Assembly (NCBI GenBank): GCA_046726415.1
Contig: JBKPAK010000131.1
Span: 1 to 14,188 of the forward strand
Direction of reading: 5' to 3'
DNA length: 14,188 nt
Origin: Candidatus Methylomirabilota bacterium
Lineage (GTDB): Bacteria > Methylomirabilota > Methylomirabilia > Rokubacteriales > CSP1-6
The notes under the pieces were generated by a model. It saw only the letters and a program-made list of their open reading frames with translations, did not search any database and was not told the origin of the DNA. A program made the translations under genes and the position numbers. Shown here one piece after another: positions 4,501-13,909 of this stretch (positions are counted from its first letter, which is position 1; every line of letters starts with the position of its first letter).

Positions 4501-4967
4501 TCGTGCGCTTGGGGGTAGCCAAAGTAGACGAGCAGGCCATCGCCGAGATACTGGGCGATGTGGCCGTCAAACTGCTGGATCACCTCGGCGCAGGTCTGCT
4601 GATAGGCCTGGATCACCTCGCGCAGGTCTTCCGGGTCTCGCTCAGCCGCGAGCCCCGTCGAGTCCACCAGGTCGCAGAACATCACCGTGAGCTGGCGGCG
4701 TTCTGCCTCCTCGGTGAGAGGAGGGACGGGAAGCGGTGGAGCCTGGGGCGCCGGGGCGTGCGCCGGCGGCGCGCTGGTCGGCCTGCGCCACATTATGAGG
4801 CGGCCATCTACGTCAACCGCCACCCCCCGGGCGTCGATGAGCTCGGTCTTGAGGTCGTCGAGGCAGGGGTCATCGAGGTTGAAGCGGCGCTTCAGGGCCC
4901 CGTAGGACACGCGGCCCTCATGCTGAAGCAGCGCGAGAACCTCCACCAGTAGCTCATCAAACGTCAT
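1581..4967 (-). CDS. Class III adenylate/guanylate cyclase + AAA/STAND ATPase + TPR-like repeats, 1128 aa
   Basis: Cyclase motifs MFCDLVDST, YLGDGLLVYFG, VRVGIHTG and GEAPNIAARIQ. Walker A GEAGIGKS, Walker B LLILEDLQWAD, GVPLFVEE (GxP) and FKHALLQEAAY. Helical TPR-like C-terminus. N-terminal ~60-aa domain (GRVSYGALKRRFNLDD) followed by a Pro-rich linker. Confidence 0.93.
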   Translation of the reverse strand: MTFDELLVEVLALLQHEGRVSYGALKRRFNLDDPCLDDLKTELIDARGVAVDVDGRLIMWRRPTSAPPAHAPAPQAPPLPVPPLTEEAERRQLTVMFCDLVDSTGLAAERDPEDLREVIQAYQQTCAEVIQQFDGHIAQYLGDGLLVYFGYPQAHEDDAQRAVRAGLGIVDALGVTRKLLQQREPPIQLAVRVGIHTGLVVVGSVGGRGRQEQLALGEAPNIAARIQSLARPDTVVISEATLRLVQGHFTCHAIGPQALRGVPTAIPVYQVLGESGVQGRLDVAAARGLTPLVGREAEVALLLARWAGVKDGQGHIVALSGEAGIGKSRLVQVLKDHIADEPHTRLECRCSPYYQHTTLYPLINMMERVLHFQRDEAPDTKLEKLERALAQYRLPLEEAVPLFATVLSLPLPEARYAPLPITPEQQKQKTLEALLAIVVELAERHPVLLILEDLQWADTSTVEFLQLLITQGPTAATLTVVTYRSDFQAPWELGADLTPLSVQRLSAAHVEAMVTRVTGGKPLPREVLQRVVTNTDGVPLFVEELTKSIVESGVLHEAEEHYELTGPLPTLAIPTTLHDALMARLDRLNTVKSVAQLGATLGRTFAYDLLQAVTPLDEATLQHGLRQLVAAELLYQRGVPPEATYHFKHALLQEAAYQSLLRSTRKQYHQRIAEVLDTRFPNTAEAQPELLAHHYTAAGDLPKAVHYGRRAAARAHRLGQFQDAVTLFEQARAWLLQLPEERAQQEALIDLNLESLWPLHFLGRLERMLFICQEAETMAHALSDRVRLGKVCVGYGISYGFTGEYKTAEPYFLRALEYLNGTAENASLTTARYALAMAYNAQGQWQQAAPLFAESIRAQEEEQSQTKEIDWGVGFLAYAYGCTALGYNLALQGRVAEAKDALLKGYTPALERLSNLFTKIYCVLWHSRMAVLLGEDHGALARAEQLLTLTAETDSPSMRFFAHVAHSTALIAVGHFAAAREACTQALQAIAGTPHHDGLGEVYFNLAWASLELGDRPAAERYHQEGKRRTARFALLQGRLLAAGRLPDFVQAEACLIQSVQADEATGAVVLAAQTRFYLAQMLAAKGEVPRAQVLLAAVRDQFDAWGISFWQRKSAQALMAFGASKGS

Positions 4968-5190
4968 CTTCTCGCCCTTCCCGCGTGCGCGTCCGGCGGC
5001 CCGAAGCGGAGGATCTCCAGGGCCAGCGACTGGTCGAAGATGGGGGCGGCCTGGCGCAGCCAGTTATTCAGCGCGCGCCCGGCCTCGCAGCCGTCAACGA
5101 AATCGCAGGTGAGGGGGTCGTACTGGCCTTGACCATCCCGCACAGGGAGTGGCCAGATGATGGCGGCGTTGAGCACTTCTGACGGAAAGC
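4964..5190 (-). pseudogene. 3' remnant of an unknown gene translationally coupled to the cyclase gene
   Basis: Its TGA overlaps the cyclase ATG (ATGA at 4967-4964). The peptide is protein-like (SEVLNAAIIWPLPVRDGQGQYDPLTCDFVDGCEAGRALNNWLRQAAPIFDQSLALEILRFG). The 5' part runs into the IS91 remnant. Confidence 0.4.
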
Positions 5191-5209
5191 TCTGGTGGCC
5201 AGCTCCTGT

Positions 5210-5371
5210 ACGAGTTACCTCCCCGAGACGAACGGCTCCACGCACTTGTTACTCCATCCGCTAGAGCTGATCGAAAAGCTTTCGGTGCTAATTCCTTCGC
5301 CTCCGTTTCATGCGCTGCGCCTCTATGACTTGCTGGCCCCGCACGCCGCGTGGCGTTCGCAAATTATCCCC
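5210..5371 (+). mobile_element. Degenerate IS91/ISCR-family (HUH) transposase C-terminal fragment
   Basis: NGSTHLLLHPLELIEKLSVLIPSPPFHALRLYDLLAPHAAWRSQIIP matches the DGxTHLxxxPLELxExLxxLxPxPxxHxxRYHGxLAPxAxWRxxIxP motif. The conserved YHG is eroded. Confidence 0.8.
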
Positions 5372-5484
5372 CGGGCCTGGGGAAGATGTCGACCTGAAAC
5401 TCGGGGGGCACGGCGTCGTGTCCGGCGCGTCAGGGGGCTATCCGGCTGGCGAGCCCGCAAAGGGCAGGCGGGACCCACCCTGAC

Positions 5485-5587: not shown

Positions 5588-5610
5588 TTCATATCCAGCC
5601 CCCTCGACCA
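5588..5610 (+). other. Second degenerate tRNA 3'-end-like remnant
   Basis: TTCATATCCAGCCCCCTCGACCA resembles a tRNA-Pro-type TTCAAATCC...CGACCA end and is followed 9 nt later by a strong hairpin. Confidence 0.35.
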
Positions 5611-5619
5611 GCAACGGCT

Positions 5620-5653
5620 AAGGGTTAGCGGACGTCGCAGCCGCTAATCCCTT
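5620..5653 (+). terminator. Stem-loop, terminator-like
   Basis: AAGGGTTAGCGG-9 nt-CCGCTAA(T)CCCTT is a 12-bp stem with one bulge, followed by TCGTTT. Confidence 0.55.
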
Positions 5654-5701
5654 TCGTTTACCCGGGATCACCGGGGAAGTCGCGTGGCTGCGGACCGGGC
5701 G

Positions 5702-6170
5702 TCAGATGCGGGGCAAGCCAAGCTCCTCGGCGCCGATCTCCTCGCGACCGCGGCGCATGACCGCGCGCTCGATCACGGCGGAGAGCTCGCGGACGTTGCC
5801 TGGCCAGCGGTAGCGTCTCAACTGCGCCTCGGCGTCAGTCGTCAGCCGCCGGGCCTCACCCTGACGCTGGGCCAGCCTCGCCGCGAAGTGTCGGGCGAGC
5901 GGCAGGATGTCGTCGGGACGCTCACGCAGGGGGAGTAGGGTGAGCGTGGATCGCGCAAACCGATCGAGCAGATCCGCGCGGAAGGTGCTGCGGGACCGCA
6001 TCGGCGAGATCGGCGTGCGTCGCAGCGATGACTCGAACGTCCAGCGACCTTGCCGCGACTCCGCCGAGGCGTTGTATCGATCTGTTCTCGATCACCGCCA
6101 GCAGCCTGCCCTGCAGATCGAGCGAGAGCGCATCGACGTCGTCCAGGAAACACCGTGCCGCCGTCGGCGG
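5702..6170 (-). pseudogene. Frameshifted sigma54-dependent activator (NtrC-like AAA+) fragment
   Basis: AADGGTVF, frameshift near 6147, then LDDVDALSLDLQGRLLAVIE...DVRVIAATHADL, frameshift near 5993, then FRADL...PLRERPDDILPLARHF...YRWPGNVREL. No clear Walker A, GAFTGA loop or Fis HTH. Confidence 0.85.
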
Positions 6171-6563
6171 CCCCTGCTGCAGCGCTTGGGGCTCGGCCAC
6201 CACTCCTCCCGTCCGCCCCCGAAGCCCTCCCGGTGACCGTGCCTTCCCGCTTCGCCGTCCCTCGCCTGGCCCGCGCCTCGCTGCTCGTCTGCCTCCCACC
6301 GCCGCTCGCCGCCCGGTCACCCTGATCGCACCGCGCTCGTCCGGGCACAGGGCCACGGTTCTCGCCCCTTCTCGCCTTCGCCCGCCCCGCTGACTGTCCC
6401 CCGCAGCCCTGGCCGGTTGCCGTCGCGGAGGGCGACCGGCTCGCGACCGCGGTGCAGAGGCAATGTTGTCCGGCGCGCCTCTTCGCGCAGGGCCTTTGAA
6501 CCGCCTATCCCCTTCGGAATCCTCAGAGCTTAGCGAGGTCGGACCAAGAGGATAGGCTCTTGC

Positions 6564-6635
6564 GCCTAACGCTGCCGCTGAGCGGCGGCGGCGAGCGAAT
6601 GCGAGCCAGCCGCCCGCTCAAGCGGGTTGTCAGGC
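6564..6635 (-). mobile_element. attC: Integron attC site 1 (72 bp)
   Basis: Minus strand: R'' GCCTGAC, 5 nt, L'' GCTTGAGC, central stem, L' GCTCAGC, 6 nt, R' GTTAGGC. Three unpaired bases all lie on the L'' arm. Begins 9 bp after the ankyrin stop codon. Confidence 0.88.
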
Positions 6636-6644
6636 AGCACTCGG

Positions 6645-7364
6645 CTAACTCCTGCCGCGTCGCGTCGATAGTCCGTTGGCCATGGCCTTGAAGTCTGGAT
6701 CTCGCTTTCTCGACATGATCTCGGCGGCCGTATCGCCGTTCTCGTTTTTAAGGTCGCCTCGGGCGCCGTATCGAAGCAGCGTGCGGAAATGACGCTTGTC
6801 GCTGTCCTTCTTCAGCATGTAGTGAAGCCCAGTCATCCCGTGGCTGTCTTGAAAGTTCACGTTTGCGCCCCTCTCAAGTAACGCTTCCGCCGCACGAAAA
6901 TGACTGCCCTTCACCGCGCTAAGGAAGGGGGTCTCGTCTTCGGCAACCGGATCTATATCGGCACCATGCTCAAGAAGCAACTTGATGGTTGCGATGTCGT
7001 CCTTGTGTGCGGCTGCCCACAGGCAATGATTCGCGTCGCAGCCGCGTTGCAATAGATGTGTGGCGAGCTGCAGATTCTGACCTCGGGAGACCGCGTACCA
7101 CAGTGGTGTCGCCTTCCAGCTATGCTCGCTGAACGCCTCTTGATTGATATCGATTCCGGCGCTCAGGAGCGCGTCGGCGGTGCGAACGCTGTCGACCGGC
7201 GACAGCTTCTTCGACCTCACGTTTACCCCGCAGCAGATGTGAAGGAAGTTCCGTCCTCTGTCGTCTCGATATGCAATCAGCTTCGGCTCGGCTGCTAGAC
7301 TCGCTTGCACGTCACGCCAACGTAGGCTCTTTACCGACTCCAGCACTTGCGTTCGCGATACCAC
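6645..7364 (-). CDS. Ankyrin-repeat protein (integron cassette gene), 239 aa
   Basis: Repeats GRNFLHICC, ATPLWYAVSRG, ETPFLSAVKG...LLERGANVN, GMTGLHY and GDTAAEI. GGGAGG RBS upstream of the GTG start. Visibly more A/T-ending codons than the flanking genes. Confidence 0.92.
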   Translation of the reverse strand: MVSRTQVLESVKSLRWRDVQASLAAEPKLIAYRDDRGRNFLHICCGVNVRSKKLSPVDSVRTADALLSAGIDINQEAFSEHSWKATPLWYAVSRGQNLQLATHLLQRGCDANHCLWAAAHKDDIATIKLLLEHGADIDPVAEDETPFLSAVKGSHFRAAEALLERGANVNFQDSHGMTGLHYMLKKDSDKRHFRTLLRYGARGDLKNENGDTAAEIMSRKRDPDFKAMANGLSTRRGRS

Positions 7365-7408
7365 CCATCCCTCCCTGATGTTCGCTTGTCCCGTGCGTCA
7401 CGGCGGCT

Positions 7409-7503
7409 GCCTAACGACCAGCTCAGCAGCACCGGCCGCCGAGGGGGCTACACGTCGGGGAAAGCGACATGCGGCCGGTGTCTGCTGCAGCGCCTGGTTC
7501 GGC
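7409..7503 (-). mobile_element. attC: Integron attC site 2 (95 bp)
   Basis: Minus strand: R'' GCCGAAC, 5 nt, L'' GCTGCAGC, 10-bp stem CACCGGCCGC/GCGGCCGGTG, L' GCTGAGC, 5 nt, R' GTTAGGC. Two extrahelical bases (C and T on the bottom strand) lie on the L'' arm. Confidence 0.9.
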
Positions 7504-7534
7504 GTGCCTTTACTCCGCGGCCGCCACACGCTAA

Positions 7535-7657
7535 TTAGGTCGCGTCCGGCTTCCGTTCGGTGGCGGGCGTGCCGCTGAAGACCTCGATGATCACGCCAAG
7601 ATCGCGGTCGGTCGGGAGGTATGCGACCTTGGCGCCGCTGAACGTGCCGCTGAGCAA
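7535..7657 (-). pseudogene. 3' remnant of a VOC/glyoxalase-like (methylmalonyl-CoA epimerase-like) gene, probable former cassette
   Basis: Not in the ORF track. Reads [40 protein letters not shown], a VOC-like terminal strand pattern (VAYL-x-T-xx-LGVIIE). The stop lies 31 bp upstream of attC2. Confidence 0.6.
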
Positions 7658-7835
7658 TCAGCACGGCCGTGGCCGCGCGGCCGATGCCGGGCATGTTGTG
7701 GTGCTCGGCCAGCCAGAACCGCGTGTAGCCCCGCCGCTCCGCGTGCTGCGCCAGCTCCAGCGTGTGGCGGAAGGCCAGGGCCGGCGTGCCGCCTTGGACG
7801 ATAGGAGAGAGATCCAGGGCCGAGAGCGGAATCAT
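7653..7835 (-). pseudogene. 5' fragment of an LLM-class (luciferase-like) flavin monooxygenase
   Basis: [61 protein letters not shown] is a typical LLM N-terminus ([11 protein letters not shown]). Similarity ends after about 61 aa. Confidence 0.88.
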
Positions 7836-8209
7836 CCCCTGCAGGATACACGCTCGAGTGAGCGGTTGGCGGGCGGGGCAACCTTACCTCTACCCCCACA
7901 CTTCTCGTTCCGAATTGAATTCGAATCCCGCCTCTGCCAGGCTCTGTGTCGTCCATCAACTGTGGCAAGTTCCTCTGCGCGCGGTAAGGTGGGCCGGATA
8001 GTCTTGCCAAAATTCCGTTTACGAGGGCGGCCCGGGCGGATGACCTCCGGCGGCGGCGGGCGACTGAAAGGCGCTCATACTCTGAGGCCCGTAGGTACAG
8101 CCCCGATCGTGCCCCCGCGGTGGGTACGGCCGTTTGACTTGGGTTGCGCCGAAGCATACGCTTTTGCGCAGCATCGAGGGTCTCACGACGGCCTTCCGGG
8201 AGGAACCAG

Positions 8210-9679
8210 ATGAGCGCGCACCACCATACGCCCGAAGACATCCGCAAGAATCTCGACCACCCCGTCATCGACGGCGACGGGCATTGGGTCGAGTACACCC
8301 CGGTCTTTGCCGAAAAAATCCGCAAGGTAACGGGCGACCTCGGCGCCAACGGGTTCTTGCAGTCGCAGCGCCGCATACCCGATGCGCTCAGCCTGACCCT
8401 CGCGCAGCGCGCCGAACGTGGCGTCGCGATGGAGGGGTTTTGGGGCCGGCAATCGACCAACACGCGCGACCGCGCGACGGCGATGATGCCCAAGATGCTA
8501 TACGACCGGCTCGACGAGCTCGGCATCGATTTCGGCATCGTCTACCCGACCGCCGGGCTCGGCATCCCGCGCATCGCCGACGACGCGACCCGGCGCGCGG
8601 TGATCCGCGGCTTCAACATCGTCACCCATGACTATTTCAAGGACCTCACCGACAAGCTGACCCCGGCCGCGGTGATCCCGGTGCACACGCCGGATGAAGC
8701 GATCGAGGAATTGGAGTTCGTCACCAATCAGCTGGGCTCAAAGGTCTGCATGTTCGGCAGCGGCGTGCGCCGGCCGATCCCGCACGCCAAGGGGGTCCCC
8801 GCCGACCTCGCCCGCTATGCCCAGAGCTTCGATCAACTCGGCCTCGACAGCGATTACGATTACGATCCGCTGTGGGAGAAATGCCGCGAGCTCGGCATTG
8901 CGCCGACCTTCCATACCGGCGGCCGCTCCTATGGCGAGCGCAACAGCCCGTCTAACTTCACCTTCAACCATATCGGTCATTTCGCCGCGGCCGGCCATAA
9001 CGTCGCCAAGGCTTTGTTCCTTGGCGGTGTGACCCGGCGCTTCCCCGATCTGCGTTTCGCGTTCCTCGAAGGCGGCGTCGGCTGGGGCTGCCAGCTGTTC
9101 TGTGATCTGATCGAGCATTGGGAGCGGCGCGGTGCCAAGGGTCTGCAGAACATGGACCCGATCAAGCTCAACCGTCCGCTGCTGCGCGAGCTGGTTGACA
9201 AATACGGCTACGCCGAGATCGCCGCCGAGCTCGACAAGCGTGAGGGCTGGCCGCTCGAAGAGGATTTTCTCACCGGTGGTATGCCACCCGACGACTACAT
9301 CCACTGCAACATCACCCAGAAGCAGGATTGGATCGACCTCTACGCTACGCCGTACTATTTCGGCTGCGAAGCCGACGACCGGATGAACTCGGTGGCGTTC
9401 GGCAAGGCGATGCCGCTGGGGGCGCGGATCAACGCGATCTACAGCTCCGATATCGGACATTTCGACGTCGTCGACATGCGCGATCCGCTGCCCGAAGCCT
9501 TCGAGCTGGTCGAGGCCGGCCACATCACCGAAGACGATTTCCGCGACTTCGTCTTCGCCAATGCGGTGCGGCTGTGGGGCACGCAGAACCCGCGCTTCTT
9601 TGAGGGCACGGCGGTGGCCAGGGAAGCCGCGGCGTCGTTGAAGAGCGGCGCCCCGACCTTGCGCGACCCGGCGAAATAA
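8210..9679 (+). CDS. Amidohydrolase family protein (Amidohydro_2-like metal-dependent TIM barrel), 489 aa
   Basis: VIDGDGH metal motif, PTFH, FLEGG and YSSDIGHFD. ATG 8210 preceded by GGGAGG is preferred over the track start at 8144. Confidence 0.9.
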   Translation: MSAHHHTPEDIRKNLDHPVIDGDGHWVEYTPVFAEKIRKVTGDLGANGFLQSQRRIPDALSLTLAQRAERGVAMEGFWGRQSTNTRDRATAMMPKMLYDRLDELGIDFGIVYPTAGLGIPRIADDATRRAVIRGFNIVTHDYFKDLTDKLTPAAVIPVHTPDEAIEELEFVTNQLGSKVCMFGSGVRRPIPHAKGVPADLARYAQSFDQLGLDSDYDYDPLWEKCRELGIAPTFHTGGRSYGERNSPSNFTFNHIGHFAAAGHNVAKALFLGGVTRRFPDLRFAFLEGGVGWGCQLFCDLIEHWERRGAKGLQNMDPIKLNRPLLRELVDKYGYAEIAAELDKREGWPLEEDFLTGGMPPDDYIHCNITQKQDWIDLYATPYYFGCEADDRMNSVAFGKAMPLGARINAIYSSDIGHFDVVDMRDPLPEAFELVEAGHITEDDFRDFVFANAVRLWGTQNPRFFEGTAVAREAAASLKSGAPTLRDPAK

Positions 9680-9713
9680 CCGGAGCGCGGGCGTCTCGCG
9701 CGCCCTTCTACGC

Positions 9714-9747
9714 TCATGGCCGGGTCACGCCCGGCCATGACGCTTTT
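9714..9747 (+). terminator. Perfect 11-bp palindrome, terminator or REP-like
   Basis: TCATGGCCGGG-TCACG-CCCGGCCATGA followed by CGCTTTT, located between convergent genes. Confidence 0.6.
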
Positions 9748-9749
9748 GG

Positions 9750-10306
9750 GGACTGCGACCAGGAAGACGCCGGCGCCACCGCCGACGTGGAGCAACGGCG
9801 CGGCGAGCAGCGGCCCCAGCAGCCGTGCGCCGTTCTGGTTGGCCTGGAGGGGGGAGACGGCGTTGAGCAGATCGCGTGCAGGGACTAGGTTCCCCAGCAT
9901 CGCCTGCTCGATCGGCGTGCTGGACGAGCGAGACGCGCCTAGGATGAAGGAGACGAGGACGAGCGGCCAGGCGTTCTGGCCTCCCCTCCCATGCGAACCA
10001 GGCGAGCCCGAGAGCCGCGAGCAGACCGACCGCGTTCATGGCCAGCAACATCGTCCGCCGATCGTAGCGGTCGGCGAACACACCGGCGAAGGGGGTGATG
10101 ATGATCGATGCCAGGAAGGCAGCGAACACGACGCCGACGGTCGAGTGGTGGTGCAGCTCGAACGCCACCCAGCCGCACGCCGTGAGCGCGGTTATGTAGG
10201 CGACGCCCGACAGGATCGACGCCGTCCACAGCGGCCGAAAGCGCTTGTACCGAACGGCTGAGAAAATGCCCGCCCGATCTCCGCCCTCAAAGATGTTGGT
10301 CGGCAT
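9750..10306 (-). pseudogene. Truncated, frameshifted MFS transporter (N-terminal ~6 TMs only)
   Basis: FRPLWTASILS and motif A (FAGVFADRYDRR). After a frameshift near 9980 it continues AWPLVLVSFILGASR...MLGNLVPARDLLNAVS...ARLLGPLLAAPLL...GVFLVAV, then stops resembling MFS. Confidence 0.85.
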
Positions 10307-10360
10307 CCGCTCAAGGCTGCGCCCGCTTGCCCCAGGGCGTCAAGGTGGGCATCCGGTCGG

Positions 10361-10412
10361 ATCGCGTAGGAGTCGGCTCGATCTCATAGGAGTGGGCTCG
10401 ATCTCATAGGAG
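10361..10412. repeat. 20-bp tandem repeat, ~2.6 copies
   Basis: ATCGCGTAGGAGTCGGCTCG / ATCTCATAGGAGTGGGCTCG / ATCTCATAGGAG, with no spacers. Confidence 0.85.
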
Positions 10413-10590
10413 CGATGCCGGGCTGCCGGCACACGCGTCAACGTCCAGATGAGCTCCAGCCGCAGGGTGTTGTCGATTGAAGCGGCCGGCTAGCCATCGT
10501 ATACGACGGGCATGCCCGACGGAGATACCGGGACCGTGTGTAGCCCCCAACACCATCCGCGCACCGATCGAGGTGCCCGAGGAGACTCCC

Positions 10591-11337
10591 GTGCCATTCT
10601 ATGAAAAAGGCAACGTCCGCATCCGCTACGAGGAGGCTGGCTCCGGCTTTCCACTGCTTGTCACCCCCGGCGGCGGCTTGAACTCCCGCGTGAGCAATTG
10701 GCCGACCGCGGTGTTCAACGCCATGGAGGCCTTCAAGAACGACTTCCGCTGCATCACGATGGATCAGCGCAACGCGAATGGCGGCGAGTCGACGGGGCCC
10801 ATTCCGGCCAGCGATCCGTGGGGCGCCTTCGCCGACGACCAGCTGGGGCTGATGGACCACCTCAGCATCCAGAAGTTCTTCTACATGGGCTACTGCATCG
10901 GTGGGCCGTTTGGCCTCAAGCTCATCGAGCGGGCTCCCGATCGCGTCGTTGCCGCGGTGCTGTGCCAGCCGGTCGGGCACCGTCCGGAGAATCCCGACGT
11001 CATGTACAACTCCGGCCGCGACGGCTGGGCCCCCGAGCTGCGCGGGCGGCGTCCTGAGATCACCATGGAGAGCATCGAGGCCTACCTGCACAACCTCTAC
11101 CGGGCTCGGCCCGACTTCGTGTACAGCGTTTCGCGCGACTTCGTGCGCTCCTGCCAGACGCCGGTGCTCGTGATGCCGGACGACACGCCGGCGCATCCGT
11201 ATCAGACGTCCGTGGACATCGCCGAGCTCGCGCCGAAGGCCCAGTCGACGGTGTTTCCCTGGAGAGAGCCGAAGGATCTGCTCGAGAAGACGATCGACCA
11301 GGTGCGCGGCTTCCTTCGATCGCATCAGCCAAGATGA
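10591..11337 (+). CDS. Alpha/beta-fold hydrolase with Cys nucleophile elbow, 248 aa
   Basis: GTG start after GAGGAG. Motifs IRYEEAGSGFPLLVTPGG, ITMDQRNANGGES, MGYCIGG (GxCxG) and TPVLVMPDD. Confidence 0.88.
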   Translation: MPFYEKGNVRIRYEEAGSGFPLLVTPGGGLNSRVSNWPTAVFNAMEAFKNDFRCITMDQRNANGGESTGPIPASDPWGAFADDQLGLMDHLSIQKFFYMGYCIGGPFGLKLIERAPDRVVAAVLCQPVGHRPENPDVMYNSGRDGWAPELRGRRPEITMESIEAYLHNLYRARPDFVYSVSRDFVRSCQTPVLVMPDDTPAHPYQTSVDIAELAPKAQSTVFPWREPKDLLEKTIDQVRGFLRSHQPR

Positions 11338-11705
11338 TGGCCGGCCGCTGAGACGCCGCGCGCTTTTGCCCCCCGCGCGACCTCAATCGAGGGGCCTCGC
11401 TGGCGCGGTGCCCTCACGCCCGCCAGCCGGGGCGCCTTCGGCCCTAATGGGTACGGCGCCTCGCGGCCATCGGGACGTGGCCGCCGCCTGATCCGCTACG
11501 TGCCCGTGCGACAGCGGGTCTCGACGGCGTGTACAGGTGGCGCTCGCCCGACGCGGCGCCCGTGTTTCATCCCCTACCTCCACCCCACTGATGACGAGAT
11601 CGCCGCCATGGTCTCGGCCCTGTTGAGCCCGCTGGTCAGCGCTTGATGGATCGCCGGGGGCCCACCCGCACCTCGGCCGCCGACGGCGCGGGGTTGGCCG
11701 GGGCA

Positions 11706-12866
11706 TCATCCGCGACCGCGGGGCCCGGCGTGCGTGGCGAGGAATGCCCGATCGCGGACGAACCGCCCGGGCGCGAAGGCCTCGAGTGACCCGCGTGTCA
11801 CGACCGAGGATGAGATCGGCGATCGAGCGTCCCATGGCGGGACCGTAGAGGATGCCCTTGCGGGCGCCGCCGGTCGCCATGTAGACGTGCTCGAGCCCGG
11901 GCACCCGGCCGAGCACGAGCAGTCCGTCCGATGCCACGGGCCGCAAGCAGGCGGTCTGGTGCGCGATCTGGGCGTCGGCCATCGCGGGCAGCATCTTCAC
12001 AAGCGCGGCCCCGATCTCGTCGCGGGCCGCGGCCGTCGAGTCCTCGTCGAAGCCCGCCTCCTCTTCGGTCGTCCCCGCCCAGAGGAGGCCGTCGGTCTTG
12101 GTCGTGGCGTAGTTATGCCCCCAGCCGACCGAGCAGTCGACCGGCGGCCCGGGAGCCTGCAGGCGGAGGATCTGGCCCTTGAGAGGACGGACGTCGATGG
12201 GCACGCCGATCCCGTCCGACACCTCGGCGCTCCACGGGCCAAGCGCGAGCACCACCGTGGAGCAGGCGACCACGTCCCGCTCGAGAACCACGCCGGTGAC
12301 GCGCCCGCCGTCGCGCAGCAAGCTGATCGCTCGCCCGTGCCGGACCCTCACTCCCAGGCCTTCGGCGGCCCGGGTCAGGGCCAGCACCAGACGATAGGGC
12401 TCGACGCCGGCGGTGTCCTCGATCAGCGTCGCTCCCAGCGTCTCGTCCGAGACACGCGGCTCCACGCGGCGAGCCTCCGAAGCGTCCAGCCAGCGCGCCC
12501 CGTAGCCCGGCTGCCGCTGCTGCCAGGGCAGCGCGGCCTGGAGTGGCTGGACGTCCGCCTCGCTGAAGGCCAGCGCGAGCGAGCAGCGGACGCGGAAGTC
12601 GACGTCAATCCCGGTCTCCTCGACGAGGCTCTCGCGCAGTTCGCGATGCAACCGCATCCCGTCCTGGGCGATCTCGGCCAGGGCCCTGGGATGCCGAAAC
12701 CACTCAGCGGGCTGAGCCCCCCGTACGCGAAGCCGGAGGCGTGGCTGCCGATCGCGTCGCGCTCGACGACAACGCTCGGTACGCGAGCCTTCGCCCGGTA
12801 GTAGGCGGTGGTCAGGCCAGCGATGCCGCCGCCCACGATCACGACGTCGGATGAATTCTCGGTCAT
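11706..12866 (-). pseudogene. FAD-dependent oxidoreductase (DAO / glycine oxidase ThiO-like) with two frameshifts
   Basis: DVVIVGGGIAG...VVVER...HASGFAYG, then a frameshift near 12682 into ...PLKGQIL...ACLRP...ATGGARKGILYGP. A second frameshift near 11787 leads into the canonical terminal LEAFAPGRF, with the stop at 11706. Confidence 0.85.
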
Positions 12867-12957
12867 CGTCCGCCGATCCTGTCAAAGAACGCGAGAACGG
12901 TCAAACCGCCCGGAGCAGCGCGATATTCGCGACGCACACGAGCGCCCAGCGAGGGCA

Positions 12958-13770
12958 TCAGTCGCGGGAACGGCGCCCCGTGAAGCACGGCGCCCGCTTC
13001 TCGCGGAAGGCGGCGACACCTTCCGCACGGTCCGGCGTGCGGCCGGCGATCGCCTGGTTTCGCGCCTCCATGTTCAGGACGTCCTCGAGCGACATGCCCA
13101 GTCCTTGGTAGAGTCCCGTCTTGGCCAGCCCGTACGCCAAGGTCGGCCCTTGGGCCAGCCGCTCGGCGAGCTTCAGCGTCTCGTTCTCGAGCTGCTCCGC
13201 GGGGACCACGCTGTTCACGAGACCGATTCGCAACGCCTCGTGGGCGTCGATGATGTCGGCGAGCAGGATCATCTCCATGGCCTTGGCCGTGCCGATGAGG
13301 CGTGGGAGGAAATACGTTCCCCCGCCGTCGGGCACGAGACCCACGCGCGCGAAGACCTCACCGAAACGGGCCGTGTCGGCTGCGATGCGCAGGTCGGTGG
13401 CCAGCGCGATGTTCAACCCGGCTCCCGCGGCCACACCATTGATGCTGCCGACGATAGGTTTCTCGAGCCGCTGCATGCGGAGGATACAGCGGTTCAAGCG
13501 CTCGACGAGAGCGCCCCCGAGGTCGCCGTCGAAGAACGACTGCTGGCCCTCGCCGGCGCGATCGCGCTTCTGATCACCGCCCGACGAGAACGCGCGCCCG
13601 GCGCCCGTCAGGATCACCGCTCGTACCGTGGCGTCGGCCTCGAGCTCGATGAGGATGCGCTCGAGCTCGCCCATCATGGGCTCGTTCATGGCGTTGAGCG
13701 TCTCGGGCCGGTTCAGGGTCAGGGTCACGATGCTGTCGTGACGGTCATACAGAACGGATCCGTTCGTCAT
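12958..13770 (-). CDS. Enoyl-CoA hydratase/isomerase (crotonase) family, PaaG-like, 270 aa
   Basis: LTLNRPETLNA, AFSSGGD, GVAAGAG, FARVGLVPDGGG and EGVAAFREKR; AAGGAG RBS. Confidence 0.93.
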   Translation of the reverse strand: MTNGSVLYDRHDSIVTLTLNRPETLNAMNEPMMGELERILIELEADATVRAVILTGAGRAFSSGGDQKRDRAGEGQQSFFDGDLGGALVERLNRCILRMQRLEKPIVGSINGVAAGAGLNIALATDLRIAADTARFGEVFARVGLVPDGGGTYFLPRLIGTAKAMEMILLADIIDAHEALRIGLVNSVVPAEQLENETLKLAERLAQGPTLAYGLAKTGLYQGLGMSLEDVLNMEARNQAIAGRTPDRAEGVAAFREKRAPCFTGRRSRD

Positions 13771-13909
13771 TCGTGCGCTCCTTGCCCGGTAGAGAACGTC
13801 GTGGTCAACGCGTTGGCCGCGCCTTCCCGGATCACCATCCTACCTCCACCTGACCCTTGACGACCTCGCCGCGCCCGCTGATCAGATCGAGCTGGGCGAT
13901 GCTCGGTCC

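Follow-up and report, generated by a model that had tools for sequence, protein, structure and literature searches.

The DNA analysed here, called the window throughout, is the entire contig JBKPAK010000131.1 (C131; 14,188 bp), one of 352 contigs in the 7.6-Mb assembly (G000) of a Candidatus Methylomirabilota bacterium. Its minus strand carries, from position 7414 down to 6570, a unit that is very probably an integron gene cassette, composed of a promoterless gene for an ankyrin-repeat protein with its own ribosome-binding site and a 72-nt attC recombination site. A second, longer attC site precedes the unit. The cassette, both attC sites and the ankyrin open reading frame (ORF) all lie on the minus strand of the window, and the parts are listed below (L056, L057 and L058 are related metagenomic loci described further on).

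6570..7414, minus: gene cassette, 845 bp, from the first T after G7415 to G6570; homologues break at its ends
7406..7414, minus: cassette 5' tail, laid out as G7415|TTAGGCAGC; in a circle it would complete R' and pair with 6638-6629
7370..7376, minus: Shine-Dalgarno-like GGGAGGG, 5 nt before the GTG start; conserved in L056-L058
6645..7364, minus: ankyrin-repeat ORF, 239 aa, GTG start; Pfam Ank_2 5.7e-18, Ank 4.2e-17
6636..6638, minus: GCT directly before R''; pairs with AGC (7408-7406) of the own tail, not with the in-situ GCA (6563-6561)
6564..6635, minus: cassette attC in situ, 72 nt; R'' GCCTGAC (6635-6629), R' GTTAGGC (6570-6564), then GCA
7409..7502, minus: upstream attC, 94 nt; R'' GCCGAAC (7502-7496), R' GTTAGGC (7415-7409); belongs to the preceding unit

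The ankyrin ORF is preceded by a leader of 50 nt, and the downstream hairpin begins nine bases past it. The position of its start is common to L056 and L058 (GTG) and to L057 (ATG). No sigma-70-like promoter was found between 6300 and 8100. The unit extends from the first T of one R' box to the G of the following one and contains a single ORF that points the same way (7364-6645); it therefore conforms to the cassette definition used in ACID, as it is given in an excerpt of PMC2674596 (this paper, PMC5027507 and PMC4889954 are cited from excerpts throughout). Of the in-situ R' box at 6570-6564, G6570 alone belongs to the cassette.

Architecture of the attC sites

Scanning both strands of the window for GTTRRRY returned 14 sites. 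Only two of them read GTTAGGC, and these lie 845 nt apart on the minus strand, as the R' boxes at 6570-6564 and 7415-7409, each with a G|TT crossover point; the similarity to homologous copies breaks at GTTAG(G).

A covariance model (R1) was built from seven attC-family sequences of G000, the downstream site of the window being one of them. The seven 78-nt segments (the 72-nt sites with 3 nt on each side) align without gaps, and their consensus hairpin consists of 28 pairs, 8 of them with compensatory changes, arranged in a 7-bp R box, a short unpaired spacer and a stem with a small terminal loop. Bulged bases are found on the R''-L'' (5') arm at columns 19, 26 and 31, with 6 pairs between columns 19 and 26. 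According to the excerpt of PMC5027507, attC sites measure 57-141 nt and have extrahelical bases on the R''-L'' arm, the first two of them separated by 6 bp. The window sites, with 72 and 94 nt, are within this range, and the hairpin has the expected form, though its bulged bases are not the G and T that are usual.

Over G000, R1 gave 26 matches at E ≤ 1, with arrays on C319 (at least 10 sites), C9 and C177. One site is located 1 kb past the intI-like gene of C132, and sites are found just past the integron-integrase genes of C132 and C9; the family thus forms arrays behind TIGR02249 matches (C132, C9) and on C319, but not on the contig of the window itself. R1-type sites occur at E ≤ 1e-6 in 123 of 150 other sampled genomes of the bacterial family, a tally that takes in the unpublished genomes G011, G025 and G067. 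The downstream site of the window scores 94.9 bits, yet it is among the sequences from which R1 was built. In a scan of the window alone, with the filters off, R1 returned the downstream site, its reverse strand and the upstream site, and nothing else stands out. The upstream site reaches 26.0 bits over the full model (E 2.8e-5) in a 170-kb search, and its longer type has relatives on C326, C139 and C87. Both sites fold better than their shuffles (z from -2.5 to -3.7): the bottom-strand fold of the downstream site gives z = -2.7 and was equalled by none of 200 shuffles, and the top-strand fold of the upstream site z = -3.7.

It is scarcely credible that these hairpins are ordinary intergenic palindromes or terminators beside a gene. 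Such an origin would suit a contig without integrase, as well as the extrahelical bases of the bottom strand, which are A, C and A in place of the usual G and T (PMC7439510). However, neither site has the T-run of a terminator, the R''/R' boxes, the bulge positions and the length all fit attC, and the 72-nt family is found in cassette-spaced arrays starting beside TIGR02249 genes (324.5 bits for the integrase of C132, cut-off 265). Both hairpins of the window are read as attC sites, which would be recombined by the integron integrase, IntI, as folded bottom strands.

Complementarity at the cassette ends

A sequence-only reading of the locus had claimed that the 5' end of the unit is complementary, over 10 nt with one mismatch, to the unit's own R'' region, and that the R' box now facing R'' pairs over the core only. 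Its strings, its coordinates and the length of 845 bp proved exact when the window sequence was re-read. On the minus strand, GTTAGGCAGC (7415-7406) complements GCTGCCTGAC (6638-6629) at 9/10 positions, as is seen when its reverse complement, GCTGCCTAAC, is compared with GCTGCCTGAC (9/10). The in-situ partner, GTTAGGCGCA, reaches 6/10 with GCTGCCTGAC, namely 6/7 in the core and 0/3 in the extension. Since both R' cores are identical (GTTAGGC), only the three bases past the core (AGC in the own tail, GCA in situ) discriminate between the two tails.

The 10-mer match is not rare as such. Three 10-mers of the window complement the R'' region with no more than one mismatch, against 1.78 expected; one of the three is the R'' region itself on the other strand, and 53 of 200 shuffles gave at least three. 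The weight of the match comes from its position only. When the circular junction was assembled in silico and folded as the bottom strand, it gave -30.6 kcal/mol, compared with -28.0 kcal/mol for the in-situ form. Replacing the own tail by the 5' tails of other G000 cassettes gave 17 junctions, all of them less stable (-24.8 to -29.9 kcal/mol).

The pairing was then counted across related cassettes. From 20 loci of 18 related genomes, R1 gave 107 matches; 1 opposite-strand duplicate and 11 sites without AAC and GTT in register were dropped, together with pairs whose spacing was below 150 or above 2,000 nt and 3 exact duplicates, leaving 60 cassettes. At the first position beyond the R box (+1), the base before R'' pairs with the cassette's own tail in 50/60 cases and with the in-situ tail in 23/60; at +2 the counts are 47/60 and 37/60, and at +3 they are 16/60 and 19/60. 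The extension as a whole amounts to 113/180 pairs with the own tail and 79/180 in situ. Permutation gave a mean of 71.7 (standard deviation 5.1) and reached 113 in 0 of 20,000 trials, although the related genomes are not independent and the p-values of the pairing tests therefore overstate the significance.

In G000, all 16 cassettes between consecutive R1 matches were counted, unfiltered. The own tail pairs at 54/64 of the four variable core positions (in situ 42/64) and at 26/48 positions of the three-base extension (in situ 20/48); the in-situ totals are approximate, as the C319 site at 9745 is off by one base, which leaves the own-tail totals and the permutation unaffected. Permuting tails against R'' regions gave p = 0.014, or 0.04 when the cassette of the window was excluded. 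The pairs at +1 and +2 genuinely reflect the circular form throughout the lineage, and the pair at +3 is at chance level. Accordingly, the earlier claim that the additional pairs record a circular form stands for the first two bases and falls for the third.

It could still be argued that the extra complementarity in the window is a coincidence and that its three additional pairs say nothing about the history of the unit, even if the unit is a cassette. We regard this as rather unlikely. Chance is favoured by the small number of discriminating bases, by the lack of an own-tail signal at +3, by the expected frequency of such 10-mers given above, and by the occurrence of AGC in 2 of 21 distinct cassette tails of G000, the tail of the window being one of the two. 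The enrichment at +1 and +2 speaks against chance, as does the rank of the own tail as the most stable of 18 junctions plus the in-situ form, and the conclusion on the limits of the unit is independent of these bases.

It is possible, though doubtful, that the R box of attC is effectively nine base pairs long in this soil-bacterial family. The two pairs added to the canonical seven would join the 5' tail of a cassette to the two bases that precede the R'' of that same cassette, and would form in no other combination. As these pairs need the own tail, they would exist only in the excised circle, or where the cassette's own ends are otherwise brought together. If so, they would provide a cheap computational test by which tails are assigned to cassettes with identical cores, and, should the integrase of the lineage need both pairs, they would constitute a lineage-specific recognition feature. 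A literature search, whose coverage stopped short of key older papers, returned no statement of R-box pairing extended by two bases, and the extension across the family may be a small novelty.

Copies of the cassette in other contexts

A metagenome scan with the ankyrin protein gave 8 loci, among which L056, L057 and L058 are the close relatives. Their nucleotide identities to the window unit are 95.6%, 87% and 84%, and their protein identities to the window ankyrin are 95%, 84% and 82%, respectively. The R'' boxes of the three read GTCTAAC, GCTTAAC and GCCTAAC; as these homologues have AAC, the GAC of the window's R'' is a derived single-base change.

The 3' end of the unit is defined by L056. 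The BLASTN alignment comprises 845 aligned bases (window 7409-6565), and, anchored at the 3' G of GTT, 39/40 bases agree before this point and 13/40 after it, 5 of the 13 being a TTAGG common by chance to both neighbours. Beyond the G, another cassette follows in L056; it has a carboxymuconolactone-decarboxylase-like ORF and an attC of its own, the second of the locus (35.7 bits). In this second cassette the R'' region CCCACCTAAC agrees at 9/10 with the reverse complement of the cassette's own tail, GTTAGGTGGC, which assigns TTAGGT to that cassette and places the crossover at G|TT. The other neighbour in L056 is an alpha/beta-hydrolase-like ORF.

The 5' end is defined by the remaining two loci. 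The junction reads GTTAGGCAG / GTTAGGCAGT in L057, with the G 51 nt before the start codon, as in the window, and GTTAGCCAG / GTTAGCCAGC in L058, with the G 52 nt before it. Over the 40 nt upstream of the junction, L057 and L058 agree with the window at 12/40 and 10/40, respectively. The neighbours are isocitrate lyase and SDR genes in L057 and a polysaccharide deacetylase gene in L058. The similarity thus begins at GTTAG in L057 and L058 and ends at GTTAGG in L056, with changed neighbours at the 3' end of L056 and at the 5' ends of L057 and L058, as the sequence-only reading had predicted for a mobile unit delimited by G|TT.

An internal control is offered by one cassette that is present in G000 both on C132 (4867-5749, the first after intI) and on C319 (12005-11114). 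The two copies, 97% identical over 892 nt, diverge no more than 2 nt from G|TT at either end, which shows that cassettes of this lineage have moved as units with precisely these limits.

Spread by homologous recombination between attC repeats, or by some other mobile element in place of the integrase, is improbable. In its favour, sites of the same attC family have at least 40 nearly identical bases in common and could sustain homologous exchange, L057 keeps R'' with a different attC body, and the copies in L057 and L058 stand among ordinary genes with no upstream attC detected. Such exchange predicts breakpoints inside the hairpin, however, whereas the observed ones are at GTTAGG (L056), at GTTAG (L057, L058) and, in the C132/C319 pair, next to G|TT at both ends. 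As for another mobile element, neither transposase nor terminal repeats were seen around the unit.

A fifth copy is carried by G019, a genome from a different genus of the same family (L023; C112 10240-10889), with 85% nucleotide identity and a 4-nt deletion. Its junction, GTTGAGT, fits GTTRRRY, and its contig ends within the ORF at the 5' side. The five copies cluster as a single clade (99/97) in a tree of residues 72-239, and G019 falls inside it, beside the window and L056 (85/84). The clade thus presents ankyrin cassettes outside an active integron in several states: L056 is intact and part of an array, L057 stands singly between housekeeping genes, the attC of L058 has an internal deletion, the window has a mutated R'', and G019 combines the absence of attC with a frameshift.

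More distant ankyrin homologues (46-60% amino-acid identity) were found at E ≤ 1e-20 in 19 of 158 other genomes of the family. No R1 site was detected beside them at 19 loci of relatives (best E 0.14) or in L059-L061 and L064, R1 being tuned to one attC family and liable to miss other attC types. A contig scan returned one 55% homologue, in a metagenome-assembled genome titled uncultured delta proteobacterium, which is uninformative on the limits. No empty site was found for the context of L057, for which only the SDR gene has relatives (G066, G065, G149), with differing upstream sequence.

Genomic context and integrases

The features that flank the cassette are the following.

7416..7650, minus: preceding unit, 148 nt of unassigned origin plus the upstream attC
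7651..7835, minus: luciferase-like monooxygenase, N-terminal fragment of ~62 codons; Pfam Bac_luciferase 7.1e-8
6513..6569, minus: stub after the cassette, 57 nt, starting TTAGGCGCA; at 6512, contigs from two of the soil runs break off or diverge

With two attC sites on one strand and no integrase on the contig, the locus is a cluster of attC sites lacking an integron integrase (CALIN). It is not a complete integron, as no intI with attI adjoins the array on the 14,188-bp contig. Elsewhere in G000, intI-like genes with the IntI-specific motif are present on C132 (3715-4658), C9 (41704-42647) and C101 (2098-3039). All three are interrupted, those of C132 and C9 by one frameshift each and that of C101 by stops and a frameshift; the single frameshifts may be assembly errors. 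On C132 and C9 the integrase has the same direction as the array, with its 3' end toward the first cassette, which is the reverse of class 1 integrons. The stretch 4729-4871 of C132 resembles the contig end of C319 (78%), and C319 may run into another integrase platform.

Upstream of the cassette, the preceding unit (7416-7650) has no family match and no homologue. Its 40-aa frame (7657-7538) gave no Pfam match at E ≤ 10 and no convincing tblastn match in G000. The unit is either a short cassette without an ORF, starting from TT at 7642, or the 3' remnant of a truncated cassette. Similarity to the same-genus genome G002 extends from 9748 down to 7651 and stops at about codon 62 of the monooxygenase gene, which is intact in G002. 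At this cut (region 7637-7660, minus strand) the window continues with GCGGCACG|TTCAGC, similar to the 3' (L'-R') end of the 72-nt attC family, which hints at a short ORF-less unit from 7642 or at a deletion that joined the gene to an attC. The 11-mer TCAGCGGCACG is present twice, at 7653-7643 and 7578-7568. Compared with G002:C20, the gene order of the window is permuted: the block 9755-13784 is followed by ~1.8 kb related to C215 of G000 and then by 7651-9748. The permutation around 9748-9755 is either a rearrangement or a difference of assembly.

Downstream of the stub lie 390 bases rich in GC and then part of a sigma-54 activator gene that contains a frameshift. This fragment (5714-6172, minus) covers the sigma-54-dependent activator from AAA+ through WPGNVREL, in two frames, without the Walker A part. 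The stretches 6174-6507 and 5180-5376 are 68% and 77% similar to DNA present at least twice on G001:C27, where the two pieces are 210 nt apart, compared with 800 nt in the window. The flank beyond 6507 is a repeated element of unassigned kind, and the contig breaks at 6512 fit the start of this similarity at 6507. The 93-aa ORF at 4964-5245 (minus) has no Pfam match and contains two 70-95-nt stretches that are 79-89% conserved in many genomes of the family, often paired 100-200 nt apart. Three short and widely conserved stretches (5003-5169, 5588-5663 and 7699-7793), considered as candidate RNA genes or attC sites, were rejected, as they resemble conserved coding motifs. Scans of the window for tRNAs and Rfam families gave no match.

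The continuity of the locus was compared with four soil runs (X1, X2 and X3 among them), available as contigs only, of which X2 is possibly the source sample. A 1,236-nt contig of X2 covers 6275-7509 with 2 mismatches and 1 gap, and spans both cassette junctions. Other soil contigs branch at 7509 (X3) and at 7660 (X1, X2) or break at 6512 (X1, X3). In X1 there is no cover of ~6876-7277, which is not evidence that the cassette is absent there. The branches and breaks, the 352 contigs of the assembly and the order permuted relative to G002 around 9750 could be taken to mean that the assembler, on passing through attC repeats, joined pieces of unrelated origin to form C131. For the cassette such an artefact is very improbable, given that the X2 contig holds 6275-7509 in one piece and that L056 independently has the ORF-attC unit; an artefact at 7651 would alter the context only, and neither the cassette nor its limits.

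Observations against a regular cassette

Several observations weigh against the assignment of the unit as an integrase-moved cassette and are gathered here. The R'' box reads GCCTGAC where RYYYAAC is expected, its AAC triplet being GAC, and it agrees with the complement of R' at 6/7; on the recombining bottom strand the AAC/GTT portion of the R box thereby contains an A-C mismatch. The score of the upstream attC in the window-only scan is marginal (13.7 bits, E 0.028). The argument from complementarity, as first put forward, stands on three bases, two of which are informative.

Among the homologues, the 5' junction of L056, CACG|AGACCAGT, has no GTT and no upstream attC, and is ~5 nt off. In L057 the conserved R'' is followed by a different, 89-nt attC (28.9 bits). 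In L058 (1673-1707) an R'' box GCCTAAC, 15 nt and GTTATGC follow one another, resembling an attC with the whole stem-loop deleted. In G019 the similarity ends at the stop codon, with no attC and with a convergent gene 8 nt further on. L057, L058 and G019 together indicate that the ORF and the attC are not always co-inherited, although in G019, nested as it is in the cassette clade, the missing attC is better read as a loss.

At the level of the contig, neither PF00589 nor TIGR02249 has a match on the 14,188 bp of C131, and no intI remnant was found. No joint of 6570 to 7414, as in a circle, or of 7415 to 6569, as in an empty site, was present among the contigs of the four soil runs, contigs being unable to show rare forms. 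Intact-monooxygenase contigs exist in X1 and X2, a contig bridging 7651 was not confirmed, and the join to the monooxygenase fragment at this position could be an assembly artefact.

Proposed history of the cassette

Integron integrases excise cassettes as circles. The cut is made in the R' box of the folded bottom strand, between A and C, its coding-strand equivalent being G|TT, and re-insertion proceeds by the same cut. Insertion leaves the final six bases of R', with any bases that follow, at the 5' end of the cassette. The travel of the R' tail to the 5' end would explain that 7414-7406, and not 6569-6561, complement the cassette's own R'' region. The excised circle would have been recombined by IntI at G|TT behind the preceding attC. 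Arrival as a circle recombined by IntI, with IntI as the catalyst, is the most likely origin of the unit, and we know of no process other than IntI recombination that gives these limits together with this pairing pattern. The proposal that the unit once was an excised circle with the limits 7414 and 6570 is supported by the attC family, by the breaks of the homologues and by the pairing rule across arrays; the limits rest mainly on this evidence, which goes beyond that of the sequence-only reading.

The array was probably cut off from its integrase platform by a rearrangement or a deletion, as is suggested by the junction of the cluster with a truncated monooxygenase gene. The cassette is probably stranded and immobile at present, because its R'' has GAC where the three closest homologues have AAC, the assembly contains no intact intI, and there is no platform promoter. 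The R'' change is on the arm that, on the recombining bottom strand, is paired to the AAC/GTT triplet of R', and may entail a loss of recombination. Any expression of the ankyrin gene would come from read-through out of the truncated monooxygenase gene.

Comparison with known systems

The window unit resembles the cassettes of sedentary chromosomal integrons, which consist of a promoterless ORF and an imperfect palindrome with R'', L'', L' and R' boxes (excerpts of PMC2674596 and PMC5027507). With the integron attC, as described in the latter excerpt, it shares the bulges on the R''-L'' arm, a length within 57-141 nt and the G|TT crossover. It differs in the GAC of R'' where AAC is usual, in bulged bases other than G and T, in the unpaired spacer, which has 2-4 nt in the consensus fold compared with 5-6 nt (same excerpt), and in the pairing two bases past the 7-nt box across this lineage. 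In the excerpt of PMC2674596, a cassette's attC is taken to be the site present in its circular form, and the rule of the own tail and the own R'' is already part of the standard cassette definition.

The locus is similar to the CALIN of IntegronFinder (excerpt of PMC4889954) in that its two attC sites share a strand, at a distance of 845 nt, and that intI-like genes occur elsewhere in the genome. It differs in its size, the smallest that a CALIN can have (two sites), in its position against a truncated gene of housekeeping type, and in its first unit, which is incomplete or without an ORF. The same excerpt names cassette insertion at secondary sites, which are neither attI nor attC, as a route to CALIN, and an example of a GTTRRRY-like secondary site is given in PMC3518468. 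L057 and L058 resemble such insertions, each with a single cassette among ordinary genes, GTTAG at the 5' end and the upstream attC undetected; the differences are that the empty site was not found and that the cassette of the window lies behind a regular attC.

The window unit is an ordinary example of a well-known mobile element, and the knowledge of integrons is unchanged by it. Reasoning from the complementarity of the own tail reportedly goes back to Hall et al. 1991, and the crossover is said to have been mapped through the complementarity between the cassette start and the inverse core site by Hall, Brookes and Stokes in 1991 and by Stokes et al. in 1997. The logic of the sequence-only reading is the same, with nothing different in principle, except that in the window the cores are identical and only the flanking bases can be used. 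A reading of raw sequence can thus fix the limits of a cassette to the base, and the value of such short complementarity is now quantified: in this lineage the first two bases next to the 7-nt core carry information, and the third carries none.

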